Position numbers and translations under genes: made by a program | Source: Candidatus Uhrbacteria bacterium | GTDB lineage: Bacteria; Patescibacteriota; Patescibacteriia; JACQRZ01 | Reading direction: 5' to 3' | Length of the DNA: 64,000 nt | NCBI GenBank assembly: GCA_016188385.1 | Contig: JACPHV010000002.1 | Coordinates: 24,116-88,115 of the forward strand | Notes under the pieces: generated by a model | What the model saw: only the letters and a program-made list of their open reading frames with translations | Told to the model about the DNA's origin: nothing | The model's database searches: none | Shown: piece after piece, positions 27,920 through 40,600 of the stretch | Layout: each line of letters begins with the position of its first letter | Numbering within the stretch: position 1 is the first letter of the stretch

Positions 27920-30900
27920 GTGTTAAAAAGTAAGCGGCGTACTAAAACGCATACCCTCCTTGTTAACACAAATCTGTGGGAACTAAGTACCACTTCTTAT
28001 ATGAAGCTTACAAGGCTCGCGAAAGCGAGTTTTCTTTTTGAACATTTTTTTCGTTTGCCCATCTTTCAAGTTATGAAGCGACTTGGCAGCCAGCAGGCAA
28101 GCACTGTTGTACTTGCGGCTGTTTCGATCTTGTTCATAGCGATATCTTCGGTATTTTCCGCAGAAGTTTTCGAACCCCCCGCATGTCCTCCGCCTAACTG
28201 CCAACCTACGGCAGCGATCGGAGGACTTTTTGCTGTATTGAGCACTGACGCGATCGCTTCTCCATTTAATGGTTCGGTCATCATCGGCGGATTGGAAGGG
28301 GCAAATGACGCGAAAGTCGGCATCGGTACCGGCGGAGATCCTTCTTCCACGCTCCATGTGATGAAGGCGGGATTCGCAGACGCGGGCTCAACACACAACC
28401 TCGCGCATTTTGGATACGAGCCGAACATCACCGGCAACCGTCAGCTCCTTATCCAACAGTGGGGTAATAAAAACACAACAAGACAATTCCTCTTCGGTAA
28501 CGGCTACATTACCGGAGCGGGTCCTTCTTTTTTTAACGGTCCCTATACCCGCGCTATCGGACTGATGTGGGATGACGATAGTATGGATGTGGTGATCAAT
28601 GATGAAAAGGCGCTTGGCAAAGCGGGAAAGCCAATAAGCGCCGTAACCATCAAATCGGAAACAGGCAACGTCGGGATAGGCAGTGCGGACCCCAAAGCAA
28701 AACTCCACATCGAGCAAGAAGTCAACGGGACTCTCCAAGCAGTGATACAAAATCTCAAGCCGGGAGGTACTGCCGCCTTAGGCCTCTACGCGTCTAAGGA
28801 TTTTCAGGATGCTGGCGGACGGATCGAGTTTGATTCAAATGGCAATGAAATGCGTGTCATCAACAACGGCGATCCGGGAGGGGTTATCACGTTTTGGACT
28901 CGCTCTCGATCTCCGGATGCGACAAAAGAACGAGTGAGAATCAATGACAATGGCGGTGTCAGCATCAGTACCCTTGGTGAAAACGGCCTTTATCTCAACC
29001 TCAATGAAGGGAAAACCGACCTCAACATATATCGGGATAATGACGTAGGTGATTGGACCCTGCTTAGGACCAATAAAGGCAATGGCATAGGATTGATCGG
29101 ACAGCCCGATGTCATGGCATTGACAGTCTCAAGAACGACCAGCAACGTCGGCATTGGGACGACGCCGAGCCCGGATTGGAAATTGGCCGTTGCGGGCAAT
29201 ACGATTGTTGATGGATCTTTGCGCACGACAGCTGATCAAATAGTCGGCACGCGCACTAAAACTCGCGAGATATCTGTTTCCGGTCCCGATGATATCATTA
29301 TTCCTCTGGGCAAATTCAATGTCGGCACCTCGATCAAGGTGACATTGCAAGCAGAAGGCGGATGGGCAGAAAGAGGCGCGCAGTATTTTCTCAATGGATA
29401 CTACAACACTCTTCCAAAGATTACCTTTCAGACTGGCAACCAACCGGATCGAATTCAATTCTATGGGACGATAATCAATGCAAGTCAGATGTATCTCTGG
29501 GCAAAGTGGATTAACGCAAGTCCTGCAGGACCCAATAATTCATACTGCGGTCGGGATAAAGGCTGTTCGAATGCTGTCCGCCTCGCTGTCACCACTTCCA
29601 GCGCATGGGATTACAACGATAAGGGAGATTTCAGCGGATCGAGTCGGTTGCAGGAAAATGTGGTGGCAGGGTACGACTGGCTGACGGTCAACAGTAACGT
29701 ATACGCCAAAGGTCCCGTATCCATCGATAGCGCAGCTGATTCTGTTCTTAATCTTCAGACAACTGATGATAGATGGCTTTACACCCAGTGGCTTACCAGT
29801 AATGGCACACGGAGAATATGGATGGGGCTCGATGGCGATCTCAATTGGTTCAACATACAGCCGGAAAACGGGACACAAGGCATCGTGCTTGGGGGCAAGG
29901 TGAATATCCCGGGTGATCTTTCTGTAGGCGGTTCCATTAACGCGGCAAATCTTCCCAAGACAGGCTACTGGTCATGGAATCATTCCAGTGGCGATAGCTG
30001 GGACAAATGGGTAAAAATCGGAGAGATGACCTTCGGTCCCGGCCCATGGGCGCCTGCCGGTGTTGTCTGGTCAATATTTCCAACAAACGCAAACCATGGG
30101 GACTCCTATGAACTTATTTCAGTCCAATTCAGGAATCATTCATCCGATATCGAAGGCTCATACGATATTATTCACCAGGTAGTTGGCGGAGGACAATATT
30201 CCATCAAGGATGTCAAGGTTGTGCGTCGAAGCGGAACAGGGCTGGGGCCCAACGTGCTTTCTATCTGGGCGCAAGCACGCGCATCGTGGCTTGGCGGGAT
30301 TCCTTGGGTGGCGCAGACCTACGGCACTGTATCGCTTAGCAGTGGCGGGCTGACGCAATACAGCTCAATTCCTGATAGCGGAACGACCTATTCCGTCACG
30401 AGCAATTATTCGAATATCGCCGGCAACGTCGGCATCGGGACGACGAGTCCTGGAGCAAAGCTCGCTATTGAAAACGGTGGCAGCAAGACAACAGGTCTCT
30501 CTGTCGTTTCTGGCAATAATGCCGATGATAAAGTTGTGTATTTTTCAGGCAACCCTAGTGTCGGTTATGATTTCACCATGCTTCAGAATGGCAACGTCGG
30601 GATTGGGACGACGGACCCCAAAGCAAAGCTCCATATCAAGAATGCAGATACAATAGATAACACTGCATTCAAAGGATTGCTAAGACTTGATATGGAAAAT
30701 TCTGCCGAAAGCGCTAGAGGATCATTTAATGAATCAAAACCTTCCTATGGCATAGAATTTAGAAGGAAGTGGCACGATCAAGCACCTTACAATCCACAAG
30801 CAGGAATTTACGCATGGGGTTCTGATTCGTGGAGTTCTGGTCTTGCGTTCCGTACAGCTGATCCTGGTCCAGATATGAAAACGAGAATGGTGATAACTGG

Positions 30901-38995: not shown

Positions 38996-40600
38996 ATGAG
39001 ACATACTCTAGAAAACCACCTGAAGTTTTCCCCGCAAGCCATGCTTGTGATAGCGTCTGCCGTGAGCGTGGGGTTACTGTTCAGTGTTGTGAATATGGGT
39101 TCGGCGGAAGAGGAAGATGAGGTTACCAAACCAGACCTTCAATTTTATGCGGCGCCGCTTTCAGTTGTAAAAAAAGAAAAAATTCGGCTTGATTGGGAGA
39201 GTGAGGGGGCTGATTACTGCACCGCGTCCGGTGCATGGTCGGGGAAAAAAGAGCCGACTGGTTCGGTTCTCGTACCTGCAAAGAAGACTGGAACCTATAA
39301 GATACAATGTTTTGATGAAGAAGGGGTGGCATCAAAAAAGATAGCACGGAAAATTACTGTTGTCGCAAGTAAGAAGAAGCTGAAGAGAAAAAAATTGTCT
39401 ACACCAACTCCTAAAGTTGGCGCTCCATCTCATGCGGCAGAGAACGAACAGGTAACCATTGCCTGGAGCTCGCCAAAAGGAACGGTTGCATGCCGCGCGA
39501 GCGGTCCTGATGATTGGGCGGGGCTCAAAGCCCCACGGTGGAGCGATTCTTTCAGCGCCGAAATTGGTCGCGAATATGCGCTTTCCTGTTGGAATGAAAA
39601 TGGTCAAGAAGGTAAGCGCGTAACTCATGTCTTTAAGCAAAAACCGAAAGTATACACCGCTACAAGCGTGGGCTTGGGCACTGAATATTTTCCCCTTTAC
39701 CCTGATGACTTCATGCTCGCTGATGGATCGGTGGTATTTTTCATTGATTTTGTAAAAAAGGAGGAGCGCTCGCCTGATACTGACCAAGACGACCTTTACT
39801 ATTTTGGGAAACGCATTGTAATCAATCCCTATATCAACACACGCGTTGAAGATAAAGATGTCCTGAAGCAACTGCACGCGCTCTCAAGTCAAGTTCCGCC
39901 CGATGTTGCTTCTTCATCAAAACTGATAAACGCCACAGAAAATATCGGCGCCTTTACCCCCATGGATGATTTGGTACAATTTAAGAATGTTGGTGAGTAT
40001 AGCCATAACGGAGAGATTCCCACTATCGCGTTCGATGATTTTGAACGCCTGGCTATAGATGGTGTCTTGGAGTATTTAGATTTGCCACGCGAGGATCTCT
40101 ATCGGCAATTGTATACCACGTCGATTCCCGCAATCTGGTTTAACGGCTTGACTGGCGCTCGGCCCATGTTTATTGCTGTGGATGTTTACAATAAGGAAAA
40201 TGATGCTAAGCCGTATCGCACGATTCTTATGGATCCTTATACGGGCGAGACCATCGCGAGCGAGATCGTTGAGAGTATGTTTGCGGTTGGAATATGGGAT
40301 CGGACGATTATGAAGGTACGAGAGCCAGAAGGAGCACAATTGGAGCCATCACCTTCAGTAAAAGATGAGCCGGTCGCTAACCCGCCGACACAGACGCCGG
40401 TTGTACCACCGAGTGAGCCAACAAAAGAAGAGCTAAAAATAGAAGAAACAACCAAGAAGTGTTCTTCTGGGTTTATATGGAGTCCAACGCTGGGCCAGTG
40501 TTATGAAGACACCAGCGCGAAGCAAAATAGCGAAGCGAAACCAGCATGCACGACAGGGTATTCCTATAGTATTACCCTCAAGACATGCGTTAAAGATTAG
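38996..40600 (+). CDS. Secreted hypothetical protein, 534 aa.
   Basis: N-terminal signal/anchor. Cys pairs and a Pro/Thr-rich linker near the C-terminus. Confidence 0.5.
   Translation: MRHTLENHLKFSPQAMLVIASAVSVGLLFSVVNMGSAEEEDEVTKPDLQFYAAPLSVVKKEKIRLDWESEGADYCTASGAWSGKKEPTGSVLVPAKKTGTYKIQCFDEEGVASKKIARKITVVASKKKLKRKKLSTPTPKVGAPSHAAENEQVTIAWSSPKGTVACRASGPDDWAGLKAPRWSDSFSAEIGREYALSCWNENGQEGKRVTHVFKQKPKVYTATSVGLGTEYFPLYPDDFMLADGSVVFFIDFVKKEERSPDTDQDDLYYFGKRIVINPYINTRVEDKDVLKQLHALSSQVPPDVASSSKLINATENIGAFTPMDDLVQFKNVGEYSHNGEIPTIAFDDFERLAIDGVLEYLDLPREDLYRQLYTTSIPAIWFNGLTGARPMFIAVDVYNKENDAKPYRTILMDPYTGETIASEIVESMFAVGIWDRTIMKVREPEGAQLEPSPSVKDEPVANPPTQTPVVPPSEPTKEELKIEETTKKCSSGFIWSPTLGQCYEDTSAKQNSEAKPACTTGYSYSITLKTCVKD

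Follow-up and report, generated by a model that had tools for sequence, protein, structure and literature searches.

A giant phage tail-fibre-like protein and its conserved gene neighbours in Candidatus Uhrbacteria as a candidate cell-surface fibre locus

It is not yet settled how bacteria of the Candidate Phyla Radiation (CPR, or Patescibacteria) find their hosts and keep hold of them. Cultivated CPR representatives are episymbionts needing adhesins (PMC10633639), and type IV pili together with a few adhesins have been implicated in host finding, in cultured Saccharibacteria only (PMC10633639, PMC12206443). It is common to propose giant surface proteins as adhesins of CPR (PMC13059738, PMC10633639), and “tail fiber domain-containing proteins” are already annotated in CPR genomes, the general idea of a surface fibre used for attachment being expected. 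Here, we addressed what kind of product is encoded by one such locus and what it may be used for. The locus lies in a stretch of 64,000 nt from Candidatus Uhrbacteria bacterium (hereafter the window, whose numbering is used for all positions; all genes and features of the locus are on the + strand). An initial annotation made from the letters of this DNA had noticed a giant repeat protein heading a row of genes for secreted and membrane proteins, and proposed an attachment module of a small-genome bacterium. The organism is indeed of this kind, namely a groundwater CPR member assigned to Candidatus Uhrbacteria, and the fourth open reading frame (ORF) of the row, ORF4, is 100% identical to HYV71_00365. 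The window is bacterial chromosome encoding alanyl-, lysyl-, and threonyl-tRNA synthetases, PBP2, DnaE, GatB, and cell-envelope glycosyltransferases; tRNA and Rfam searches of it gave no matches. We consider it fairly probable that positions 28073-38279 constitute a four-gene operon for a cell-surface fibre assembled from phage tail-fibre parts, with attachment to a host or partner cell as its likely purpose. The architecture and homologies of the fibre, the mosaicism of its family, the taxonomic distribution of its carriers, and the conserved gene order are described below, and the role in host attachment, which we infer by analogy, is weighed against other uses.

Architecture and relatives of the giant fibre

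The giant ORF is present as first described, occupying 27920..34372 with 2150 codons if counted from GTG, and its supposed tail-fibre-like character is substantiated by matches to two PHROG tail-fibre families (3.6e-29 and 6.6e-28) and to fibres with solved structures. Ten copies of a NVGIGTTxPxAKLxI-type motif had been counted in it; we found ten strict copies of [NSY]VGIG[TS]xxPxxKLxI and one degenerate copy in addition. The 11 observed occurrences of the core motif compare with a mean of 0.04 (maximum 2) in protein shuffles, and a six-frame scan of the window places 11 of 11 within the fibre gene. In the DNA, a 56-nt unit can be recognized in nine copies that are 61-79% identical; judged from sequence, the repeats are old and diverged and not recent duplications. 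A diversity-generating retroelement was considered and rejected, since there is no long template/variable repeat pair in the window and the 56-nt motif represents the only repeat family of the gene.

Search of PDB sequences by phmmer matched the fibre to Bd2133 of Bdellovibrio bacteriovorus (8OND, 2.7e-7), and the family profile reached five Bdellovibrio structures (8ond, 8oml, 8ol4, 8ojn, and 8on4; down to 2e-13), all labelled “cell wall surface anchor family” and matched via the motif modules. They belong to mosaic adhesive trimer (MAT) proteins (Caulton et al., 2024; PMC10769870), which begin with a signal peptide and a conserved beta-rich N-domain of ~130 aa, have swapped tips, and are represented among PDB sequences by C-terminal fragments. 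MAT fibres were experimentally shown to be trimeric adhesive fibres of a predatory bacterium and are implicated in prey recognition; their beta-helix modules open with the same motif (TSGNLGLGTAAPTSALHV in Bd2133), and their ends are either the S74 chaperone or swapped tip domains (PMC10769870). Alignments put the window motifs at the starts of Bd2133 beta-helix domains, and therefore the simplest view of each motif-headed module is that of a single triple beta-helix stretch. The likeness to MAT fibres (Bd2133, Bd3182) extends to their being cell-encoded with a signal peptide (a predicted one in the window protein), to the shaft of GN(V/L)G(I/L)GTxxPxxxLHV-headed modules, to conserved N-termini, to domain exchange among paralogues or orthologues, to the presence of a chaperone or tip after the last motif, and, as far as lifestyle can be judged, to an organism relying on contact with other cells. 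Unlike MAT fibres, the window protein belongs to a CPR bacterium and not to a diderm predator, is two to three times longer, ends in a gp12/G2-type domain that is neither S74 nor any described non-S74 tip, is followed on the 3′ side by a conserved set of three accessory genes, and is known from genes alone. In its overall plan it also resembles S74 phage tail fibres and spikes (T5 pb1, K1F endosialidase; PMC4690869), which have a conserved proximal end, a modular triple-beta shaft with the same motif, and a C-terminal chaperone dispensable once the fibre is folded. However, the S74 chaperone itself, which had been considered for the window protein, was not found, there being neither a PF13884 match nor SDxxxK in the C-terminal 450 residues, while many distant giant homologues do have PF13884.

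Three candidate starts are available for the giant ORF: GTG 27920, ATG 28001 (the choice of NCBI), and ATG 28073. The latter, singled out in the initial annotation as the beginning of a signal or anchor sequence, is almost certainly the true start as judged from alignments, defining the fibre gene (HYV71_00350) as 28073..34372 with a 2,099-aa precursor. It is preferred for three reasons. Residue 1 of P0001, P0002, and P0004 (P0001-P0006 denote fibre homologues) aligns with residue 1 counted from Met 28073; the partial protein HYV71_05000, encoded on another contig of the same metagenome-assembled genome (MAG), begins at the equivalent Met and shows 100% identity over 138 aa; and a terminator-like hairpin at 28012-28033 falls within the longer versions, i.e., inside the 28001-28072 extension. 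GTG 27920 and ATG 28001 were rejected accordingly, the 24-residue extension of the GenBank product (MBI2483621.1, 2,123 aa) being absent in the homologues as well as in HYV71_05000. The latter fragment (MBI2484507.1), located at the edge of a 7,368-nt contig and matching window positions 28073-28486, is complete in its identity, so that the MAG has a second fibre 5′ end, which may come from a paralogue or from a strain variant whose modules differ further downstream. The window’s own giant protein is missing from the homology search, being represented in its cluster by this fragment. Met 28073 is followed by a KR n-region, an 18-residue hydrophobic core, and a small-residue site VFS|AE, with Kyte-Doolittle hydrophobicity reaching 2.5 in a 19-residue window. 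This segment (aa 1-29, 28073..28159; MKRLGSQQASTVVLAAVSILFIAISSVFS, then AE) is conserved in P0001 and P0004 and resembles a Sec signal peptide or signal anchor, as was supposed, which makes export of the fibre probable.

The signal opens the conserved N-terminal region (aa 1-307, 28073..28993), presumably the cell-proximal base of the fibre, where motif copy 0 (degenerate, KVGIGTGGDPSSTLHV, 28313..28360) and copy 1 (NVGIGSADPKAKLHIE, 28667..28714, aligning with the Bd2133 motif TSGNLGLGTAAPTSALHVE) are found. Copy 2 (NVGIGTTPSPDWKLAV) occupies 29144..29191. Motif spacing along the protein is 56-159 aa, save two gaps of 427 and 342 aa corresponding to motif-free inserts. Insert 1 (~410 aa, aa 374-784, 29192..30424) is partly common to P0003 and P0005 according to BLASTP segments and had no Pfam match. 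It is followed by six central motif-headed modules (30425..31930) with motif starts at 30425, 30593, 30908, 31142, 31436, and 31883 and spacing of 56-149 aa, which hold the best matches to PHROG tail-fibre families and to Bd2133 beta-helix domains. Insert 2 (~325 aa, aa 1287-1612, 31931..32908) is 75% identical to the equivalent part of P0001 and contains the ConA/LamG-like stretch proposed earlier (about 32060-32750), which was not confirmed by sequence, with neither a Pfam match at E<=10 nor a PDB match for a two-sequence profile. Copies 9 and 10 (32909..33214; NVGIGTSRPGQKLGVY at 32909 and NVGIGTASPGAKLEIS at 33167) complete the series, and a pre-chaperone region (aa 1715-1938, 33215..33886) with two Cys pairs and a low-confidence AlphaFold model leads to the C-terminal domain.

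Among 5.8 billion proteins, the fibre has five close homologues, whose lengths are 1,463-2,489 aa and whose motif numbers vary from 6 to 13 (one is assigned to Uhrbacteria by name), and ~100 distant giant proteins were retrieved as well, many from CPR and many with PF13884 (S74). Comparison with the close relatives indicates that the family is mosaic, with conserved N- and C-termini and a shuffled middle. Identity at the N-terminus amounts to 79% with P0001 (over 307 aa) and to 54-56% with P0002 and P0004 (over ~215 aa), and the last 200-300 aa are about 50% identical across all of P0001-P0005, whereas the middle segments find their matches in P0001-P0006 at shifted positions or not at all (BLASTP segment map). 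From about aa 1790 on, the pre-chaperone region has conserved counterparts in P0002, P0004, and P0005, while P0001 and P0003 match the fibre C-terminus only from about aa 1892 and not this region.

The C-terminal domain and its carriers

The best reading of the fibre’s end, based on profile comparison and modelling, is a divergent G2-type intramolecular chaperone, that is, a phi29 gp12/Peptidase_G2-like (beta-tulip) domain at aa 1939-2076 (33887..34300). In an AlphaFold2 model from 14 sequences, aa 1939-2076 have a predicted local distance difference test score (pLDDT) of about 90 and lead into a 22-residue helix, confidence being low upstream; in this predicted structure the domain has the fold of the gp12 C-terminal domain. 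By hhalign, the family profile is aligned with the gp12 C-terminus at E 3.5e-5 and 72% probability, and among PDB sequences the profile reaches gp12 (PDB 3GQH) at E 0.067; phmmer with the isolated C-terminal 210 aa found no match among PDB sequences. The gp12 C-terminus itself corresponds to Pfam PF11962 Peptidase_G2 (“IMC autoproteolytic cleavage domain”, 3.6e-84), which is weakly matched (E<=1) by 7 of 22 relatives of the fibre’s C-terminal domain. The consensus of the last-210-aa family reads GxDxAExF...GDVVV...GVVSxxP...PVALAGRVPVKVSxENGxIxxGDxLTxSSxPGxAMKAT.

In phi29 the gp12 C-terminal domain reportedly acts as an autochaperone with ATP-dependent release, which promotes trimer formation and is afterwards removed by a cut between Ser691 and Asp692; a catalytic role is ascribed to Asp692 and Glu695 (MEROPS G2). 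The hhalign alignment pairs gp12 S691-D692-F-A-E695-Y-F with L1939-D1940-V-A-E1943-I-F of the fibre, giving L1939|D1940 (DVAE, D codon at 33890) as a candidate autocleavage site. D-x-A-E is kept in 58 of 61 domain copies from the fetched loci, and both D1940 and E1943 are invariant in close relatives. A cut before Asp1940, if it takes place, would free a 160-aa fragment.

The domain occupies nearly the extreme C-terminus (aa 1939-2076 of 2099), only the 22-aa helix lying beyond it, as in the close Uhrbacteria homologues and in viral carriers. Concerning the C-terminal coiled coil initially ascribed to this part of the protein, an amphipathic helix of ~22 aa with heptad spacing is indeed predicted (34301..34369, KGVSSLIKDIEQRVRDLENKIQK; AlphaFold2 helix, model residues 288-309), but it is a single helix only and the beta-rich gp12-like domain dominates. 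Relative to phi29 gp12, the window fibre thus adds a terminal helix, its carrier is predicted to be exported instead of being a virion part, and its sequence similarity falls under the Pfam threshold. It also differs from the beta-tulip capsid decoration or cement proteins (HFTV1 8QSY, Sf11 gp40, Pam3), which are free-standing and ~140 aa long, in being fused to the end of a fibre and in having the gp12-like DxAE boundary motif.

A single peptide pattern revealed at least 356 confirmed loci with the C-terminal domain in GTDB species representatives, most of them from CPR and a few from DPANN-like archaea, Chloroflexi, and Bdellovibrionales. Of the 80 best cellular loci, no fewer than 47 are assigned explicitly to CPR, including Uhr-, Saccharibacteria, Levy-, Roizman-, Pacei-, Peri-, Doudna-, Yanofsky-, and Daviesbacteria, and the same best 80 comprise a few Chloroflexi, one Thermotogae, one Bdellovibrionales, one Planctomycetales, and two archaeal MAGs. 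The archaeal carriers are a Nanoarchaeia MAG (L019; L numbers denote fetched loci of relatives) and an uncultured archaeon (L091), in which the domain occurs in three proteins of 600-680 aa. Twenty carrier MAGs are labelled Gammaproteobacteria/Pseudomonadales (L013, L016, L018, L037, L060, and 15 others), but these labels are doubted, since three of the MAGs represent complete chromosomes with a size of only 0.89-1.0 Mb (OZ246408.1, OZ246414.1, and OZ246416.1); L013 and L016 also have ORF2-like and ORF4-like neighbours.

On the viral side, 73 IMG/VR contigs have the domain, with identity of 26-43% as compared to up to 60% for cellular relatives, and none of 50,697 phage genomes matched the domain by tblastn. 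The complete proteins of the two sets are distinctly different. Cellular carriers (n=44) have a median length of 1,694 aa, a hydrophobic N-terminus in 33 and GIGTxxP in 27 cases, and a median of 173 residues after the domain, whereas in viral carriers (n=71) the median length is 508 aa, neither the hydrophobic N-terminus nor GIGTxxP is found (0/71 for both), and a median of 11 residues follows the domain. In its export signal, giant size, and motifs the window fibre is like the cellular carriers, while its domain is terminal as in the viral ones. No paper tying Peptidase_G2/gp12-type chaperones to CPR was found by literature search, and both the G2-type ending on a large cellular fibre family overlooked by domain libraries and the clean split between cellular and viral carriers appear to be new. 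The locus also shows that a phi29-type chaperone domain, hitherto a feature of phages, is common among the cellular proteins of ultrasmall prokaryotes, where current domain annotation misses it.

Genes downstream of the fibre

Five co-directional genes follow the fibre, and the way in which their products were originally described holds for a Cys-rich ORF2, a multi-transmembrane ORF3, a DoxX-type ORF5, an ORF6 with an N-terminal hydrophobic segment, and, with the probability discussed below, a transglutaminase-like ORF4. In GenBank, the fibre and ORFs 2, 3, 4, and 6 (HYV71_00350, HYV71_00355, HYV71_00360, HYV71_00365, and HYV71_00375) are all designated “hypothetical protein”. The fibre and ORFs 2-4 are tightly packed, with successive intergenic gaps of 10 (from the fibre stop codon), 22, and 27 nt, and 236 nt separate them from DoxX.

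ORF2 (34382..35941, 519 aa) has 16 Cys, an N-terminal signal or anchor, an Ig-like stretch, a strongly conserved Gly/Ala-rich hydrophobic block, and a Pro-rich linker. Its orthologues, 39-42% identical, stand directly 3′ of the fibre in L002/L005, L009, and L014, and in more distant loci the second-position proteins also begin with a signal followed by [FY]C. ORF3 (35964..37046, 360 aa) is a polytopic membrane protein with an N-terminal signal, an acidic/Pro linker, and then at least six transmembrane-like segments; orthologues were found in L002/L005, L009, L014, and L003, and its counterpart in L001 weakly matches DUF7847/UPF0259. The order fibre-ORF2-ORF3-ORF4 is retained in a second Uhrbacteria lineage (L002/L005-L008; identity of 41%, 38%, and 54% for ORF2, ORF3, and ORF4, respectively) and in L009 (42%, 35%, and 59%), while L014 has fibre-ORF2-ORF3 in a locus cut at ORF3. 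Diverged versions of the module are present in L003 and in L012/L094, the latter with an ORF4 identity of about 30%, and fragments of it in L011 and L016. In L012/L094 (JACQSC010000002.1) a second fibre-like gene for 1,307-1,443 aa is located directly after the ORF4 homologue, and L003 has an extra ORF4-like gene upstream of the fibre.

The DoxX-family membrane protein (ORF5, 38516..38908) is recognized by PF07681 with 47.5 bits against the 23.6-bit cutoff (E 2.8e-12). ORF6 (38996..40600, 534 aa) encodes a probable secreted protein with two Cys-containing Ig-like repeats; no homologue of it was found in the fetched loci, the syntenic L005 included. In L005, DoxX, a small protein, and a DHHA1 phosphoesterase are syntenic with the window, being separated from the module by an inserted AAA_14/DUF4143 gene, and DoxX is absent after the module in L009 and L003. 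Since DoxX is set apart in L005 and ORF6 has no counterpart, the functional unit comprises four genes and not six. Thus, of the cluster proposed initially, the fibre with ORFs 2-4, which are co-directional and conserved together, stands, while DoxX and the second secreted protein are merely neighbours.

ORF4 (37074..38279, 401 aa), which is 100% identical to P0122, starts with a probable signal, continues with a transglutaminase/papain-like Cys-His-Asp domain, and has a TPR-like helical tail. The family counts 31 representatives among 1.84 billion proteins, with three matches in a word-indexed search, and adjoins fibre genes wherever genomic context sufficed. A basic-hydrophobic-AxA stretch near the N-terminus of its members suggests export. 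All 33 members have C196 and D189, at least 90% have H232 and D255, and G194 and V195 are near-invariant, the codons of the candidate triad being located at 37659-37661 (C196), 37767-37769 (H232), and 37836-37838 (D255). In the AlphaFold model (pLDDT 86.5, predicted TM-score (pTM) 0.81), DSSP assigns a helix to residues 196-214 with Cys196 at its N-terminus and strands to 232-243 and 246-254 on the side of His232 and Asp255; a Cys at the helix N-terminus with His and Asp on adjacent strands is, as modelled, the core topology of papain and transglutaminases. Six of the 33 members weakly match DUF553 or Transglut_core. No significant profile or Foldseek match linked ORF4 to human TG2 (3LY6), TG3 (8RMX), S. 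pyogenes TglA (9CRN), Transglut_core, or DUF553; Foldseek with the model against PDB returned nothing significant, the profile met only TPR and designed helical repeats among PDB sequences, and scanning of genome contigs with the ORF4 pattern gave 469 pattern matches with none confirmed. The conserved C196/H232/D255 and the predicted core topology make the transglutaminase-like Cys-His-Asp fold probable, and a fibre-associated set of three genes including a private transglutaminase-like family appears to be new as well.

Possible function of the locus and its surroundings

Taken together with what is described for gp12 and MAT fibres, the locus can be read as follows. The precursor would be exported through Sec, its C-terminal domain would nucleate a parallel homotrimer, as in gp12, and autocleavage before Asp1940 would then probably remove this domain, exposing the variable region upstream of it as the distal tip. 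The pre-chaperone region would in this case form the tip of the mature fibre. Since the chaperone is conserved and the adjoining upstream region is shared only with P0002, P0004, and P0005, the C-terminus is seen as an assembly device and not as a binding tip; the combination of a conserved chaperone with a variable region before it resembles the pattern of phage receptor-binding proteins. The conserved N-terminus may hold the fibre at the envelope through its own anchor or through ORF2 and ORF3, while ORF4, acting outside the cell, may have the fibre or the envelope as its substrate for processing or cross-linking, or else cut peptide links in the wall of a partner. Shuffled middle and tip modules would determine binding specificity, as in phage receptor-binding proteins and MAT fibres, and for a CPR bacterium with a reduced genome this would mean attachment to a host or partner cell.

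Several observations weigh against this scheme. Pfam and NCBIfam have no significant match for the fibre, either whole or in six segments, nor for ORF2, ORF3, and ORF4 (the same holds for ORF6), and PF11962 is not matched by the window protein even at E<=10 with the isolated C-terminus. At the supposed cleavage site P1 is Leu (A, L, Y, or F in relatives) and not Ser as in gp12, and in most distant cellular relatives 150-600 further residues follow the domain, which may therefore be a non-cleaved trimerisation module in them and possibly in the window protein too. The signal peptide of the fibre was called on hydrophobicity only; surface display, trimerisation, cleavage, and binding are what we infer from the relatives, and the lifestyle of uncultured Uhrbacteria is an extrapolation.

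The fibre could also be exported and displayed but used otherwise, namely as an envelope or S-layer-like fibril, as an adhesin to particles or biofilm, or as a tailspike-like degrader of polysaccharides that sets nutrients free, with ORFs 2-4 serving to assemble or anchor it; this is rather unlikely in our estimate, but it is the likeliest of the alternatives. The structural evidence speaks to architecture and not to the ligand, both motif-free inserts of 325-410 aa are silent in Pfam (and insert 2 in PDB sequences as well), and the domain is also found in MAGs of Chloroflexi, Thermotogae, and Planctomycetales, which are not known to be episymbionts. The beta-helix of phi29 gp12, the closest solved relative of the C-terminal part, is said to be an enzyme digesting teichoic acid. 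On the other hand, no glycosidase or lyase family was found by Pfam searches, explicit CPR members make up the majority of the best cellular loci given above, and the exchange of middle and tip modules between close relatives is a hallmark of receptor-binding proteins under host-range selection.

Conservation of the tightly spaced gene order together with the catalytic-looking triad of ORF4 would also suit contact-dependent antagonism or effector delivery, in which the fibre docks, ORF2 with its conserved Gly/Ala-rich hydrophobic block inserts in the target membrane, ORF4 attacks the wall or proteins, and ORF3 protects the producer. ORF2 showed similarity to hydrophobic regions of PHROG tape-measure and tail-lysin proteins at E 0.014-0.024, which is not significant, and toxin-antitoxin and Abi genes flank the module in relatives. 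We regard this as improbable: known toxin or immunity families were absent from the results in every library searched, the fibre terminates in a conserved assembly domain instead of a variable toxin tip, and ORF2 has an N-terminal anchor of its own. Finally, a prophage remnant, whose giant gene would be a phage tail fibre without cellular role, is highly improbable and was rejected, because, despite the PHROG similarity, the phage-type chaperone shared with the IMG/VR contigs, and an adjacent low-GC island with Fic/Doc and RhuM genes, no capsid, portal, terminase, tail, or baseplate genes are found within about 20 kb on each side, the domain has no match in the 50,697 phage genomes searched and its viral relatives are more distant than the cellular ones, the export signal conserved in homologues is never seen in viral carriers, and the same chromosomal neighbours (DoxX, DHHA1) recur in a relative 54-60% identical.

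With attachment to a host or partner as the preferred function, the locus represents a concrete testable candidate and gives a handle for the study of host recognition in CPR, having a predicted assembly path (export, trimerisation on the gp12-like chaperone, cleavage) and a modular architecture that could be read for host range in the way this is done for phage receptor-binding proteins. A much more tentative suggestion is that G2-ended giant fibres serve ultrasmall episymbionts in general as their device for recognizing hosts. They would then have arisen by exaptation of phage receptor-binding proteins and have diversified, like these, through module shuffling. In Uhrbacteria they would be furnished with a membrane base of ORF2 and ORF3 and with ORF4, which would either fix the fibre to the envelope or breach the wall of the partner.

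The surroundings of the module vary between relatives. In L001 and L002/L005 a second giant surface protein of 1,953-2,090 aa with fn3, Big_5, and CarboxypepD_reg domains is encoded divergently just upstream of the fibre, and type IV pilus genes (PilM, N_methyl pilin) are located nearby in L001. In the window, Fic/Doc-type genes occupy the position of this second giant protein. They are part of the low-GC (0.37-0.42) island at about 16-26 kb, which comprises RhuM, Fic, and unknown genes and hosts three copies of a 33-nt sequence (AATAAGGCGTCTTGGCTTTTGGGTATTCACCCC, 82-100% identical; 21600-21632, 22729-22761, and 24042-24074), placed at or just past the stop codons of successive genes and resembling cassette punctuation. 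Direct repeats of ~85 nt (19195-19279 and 24192-24275, 76-83% identical, 5 kb apart) bracket oxidoreductase, RhuM, unknown, and Fic genes, and inverted and direct repeats at 16966-17021, 19095-19150, and 19292-19327 bracket a pair of aminotransferase and DHDPS-like genes; both sets may mark the boundaries of inserted elements. Closer to the module, a 31-nt intergenic motif (CAAAACAAAAACAAGGTCTGGTGCCGTTTTT, 71% identical) is found after ORF4 (38389-38419) and after ORF6 (40634-40664), which may be a shared terminator or regulatory element.

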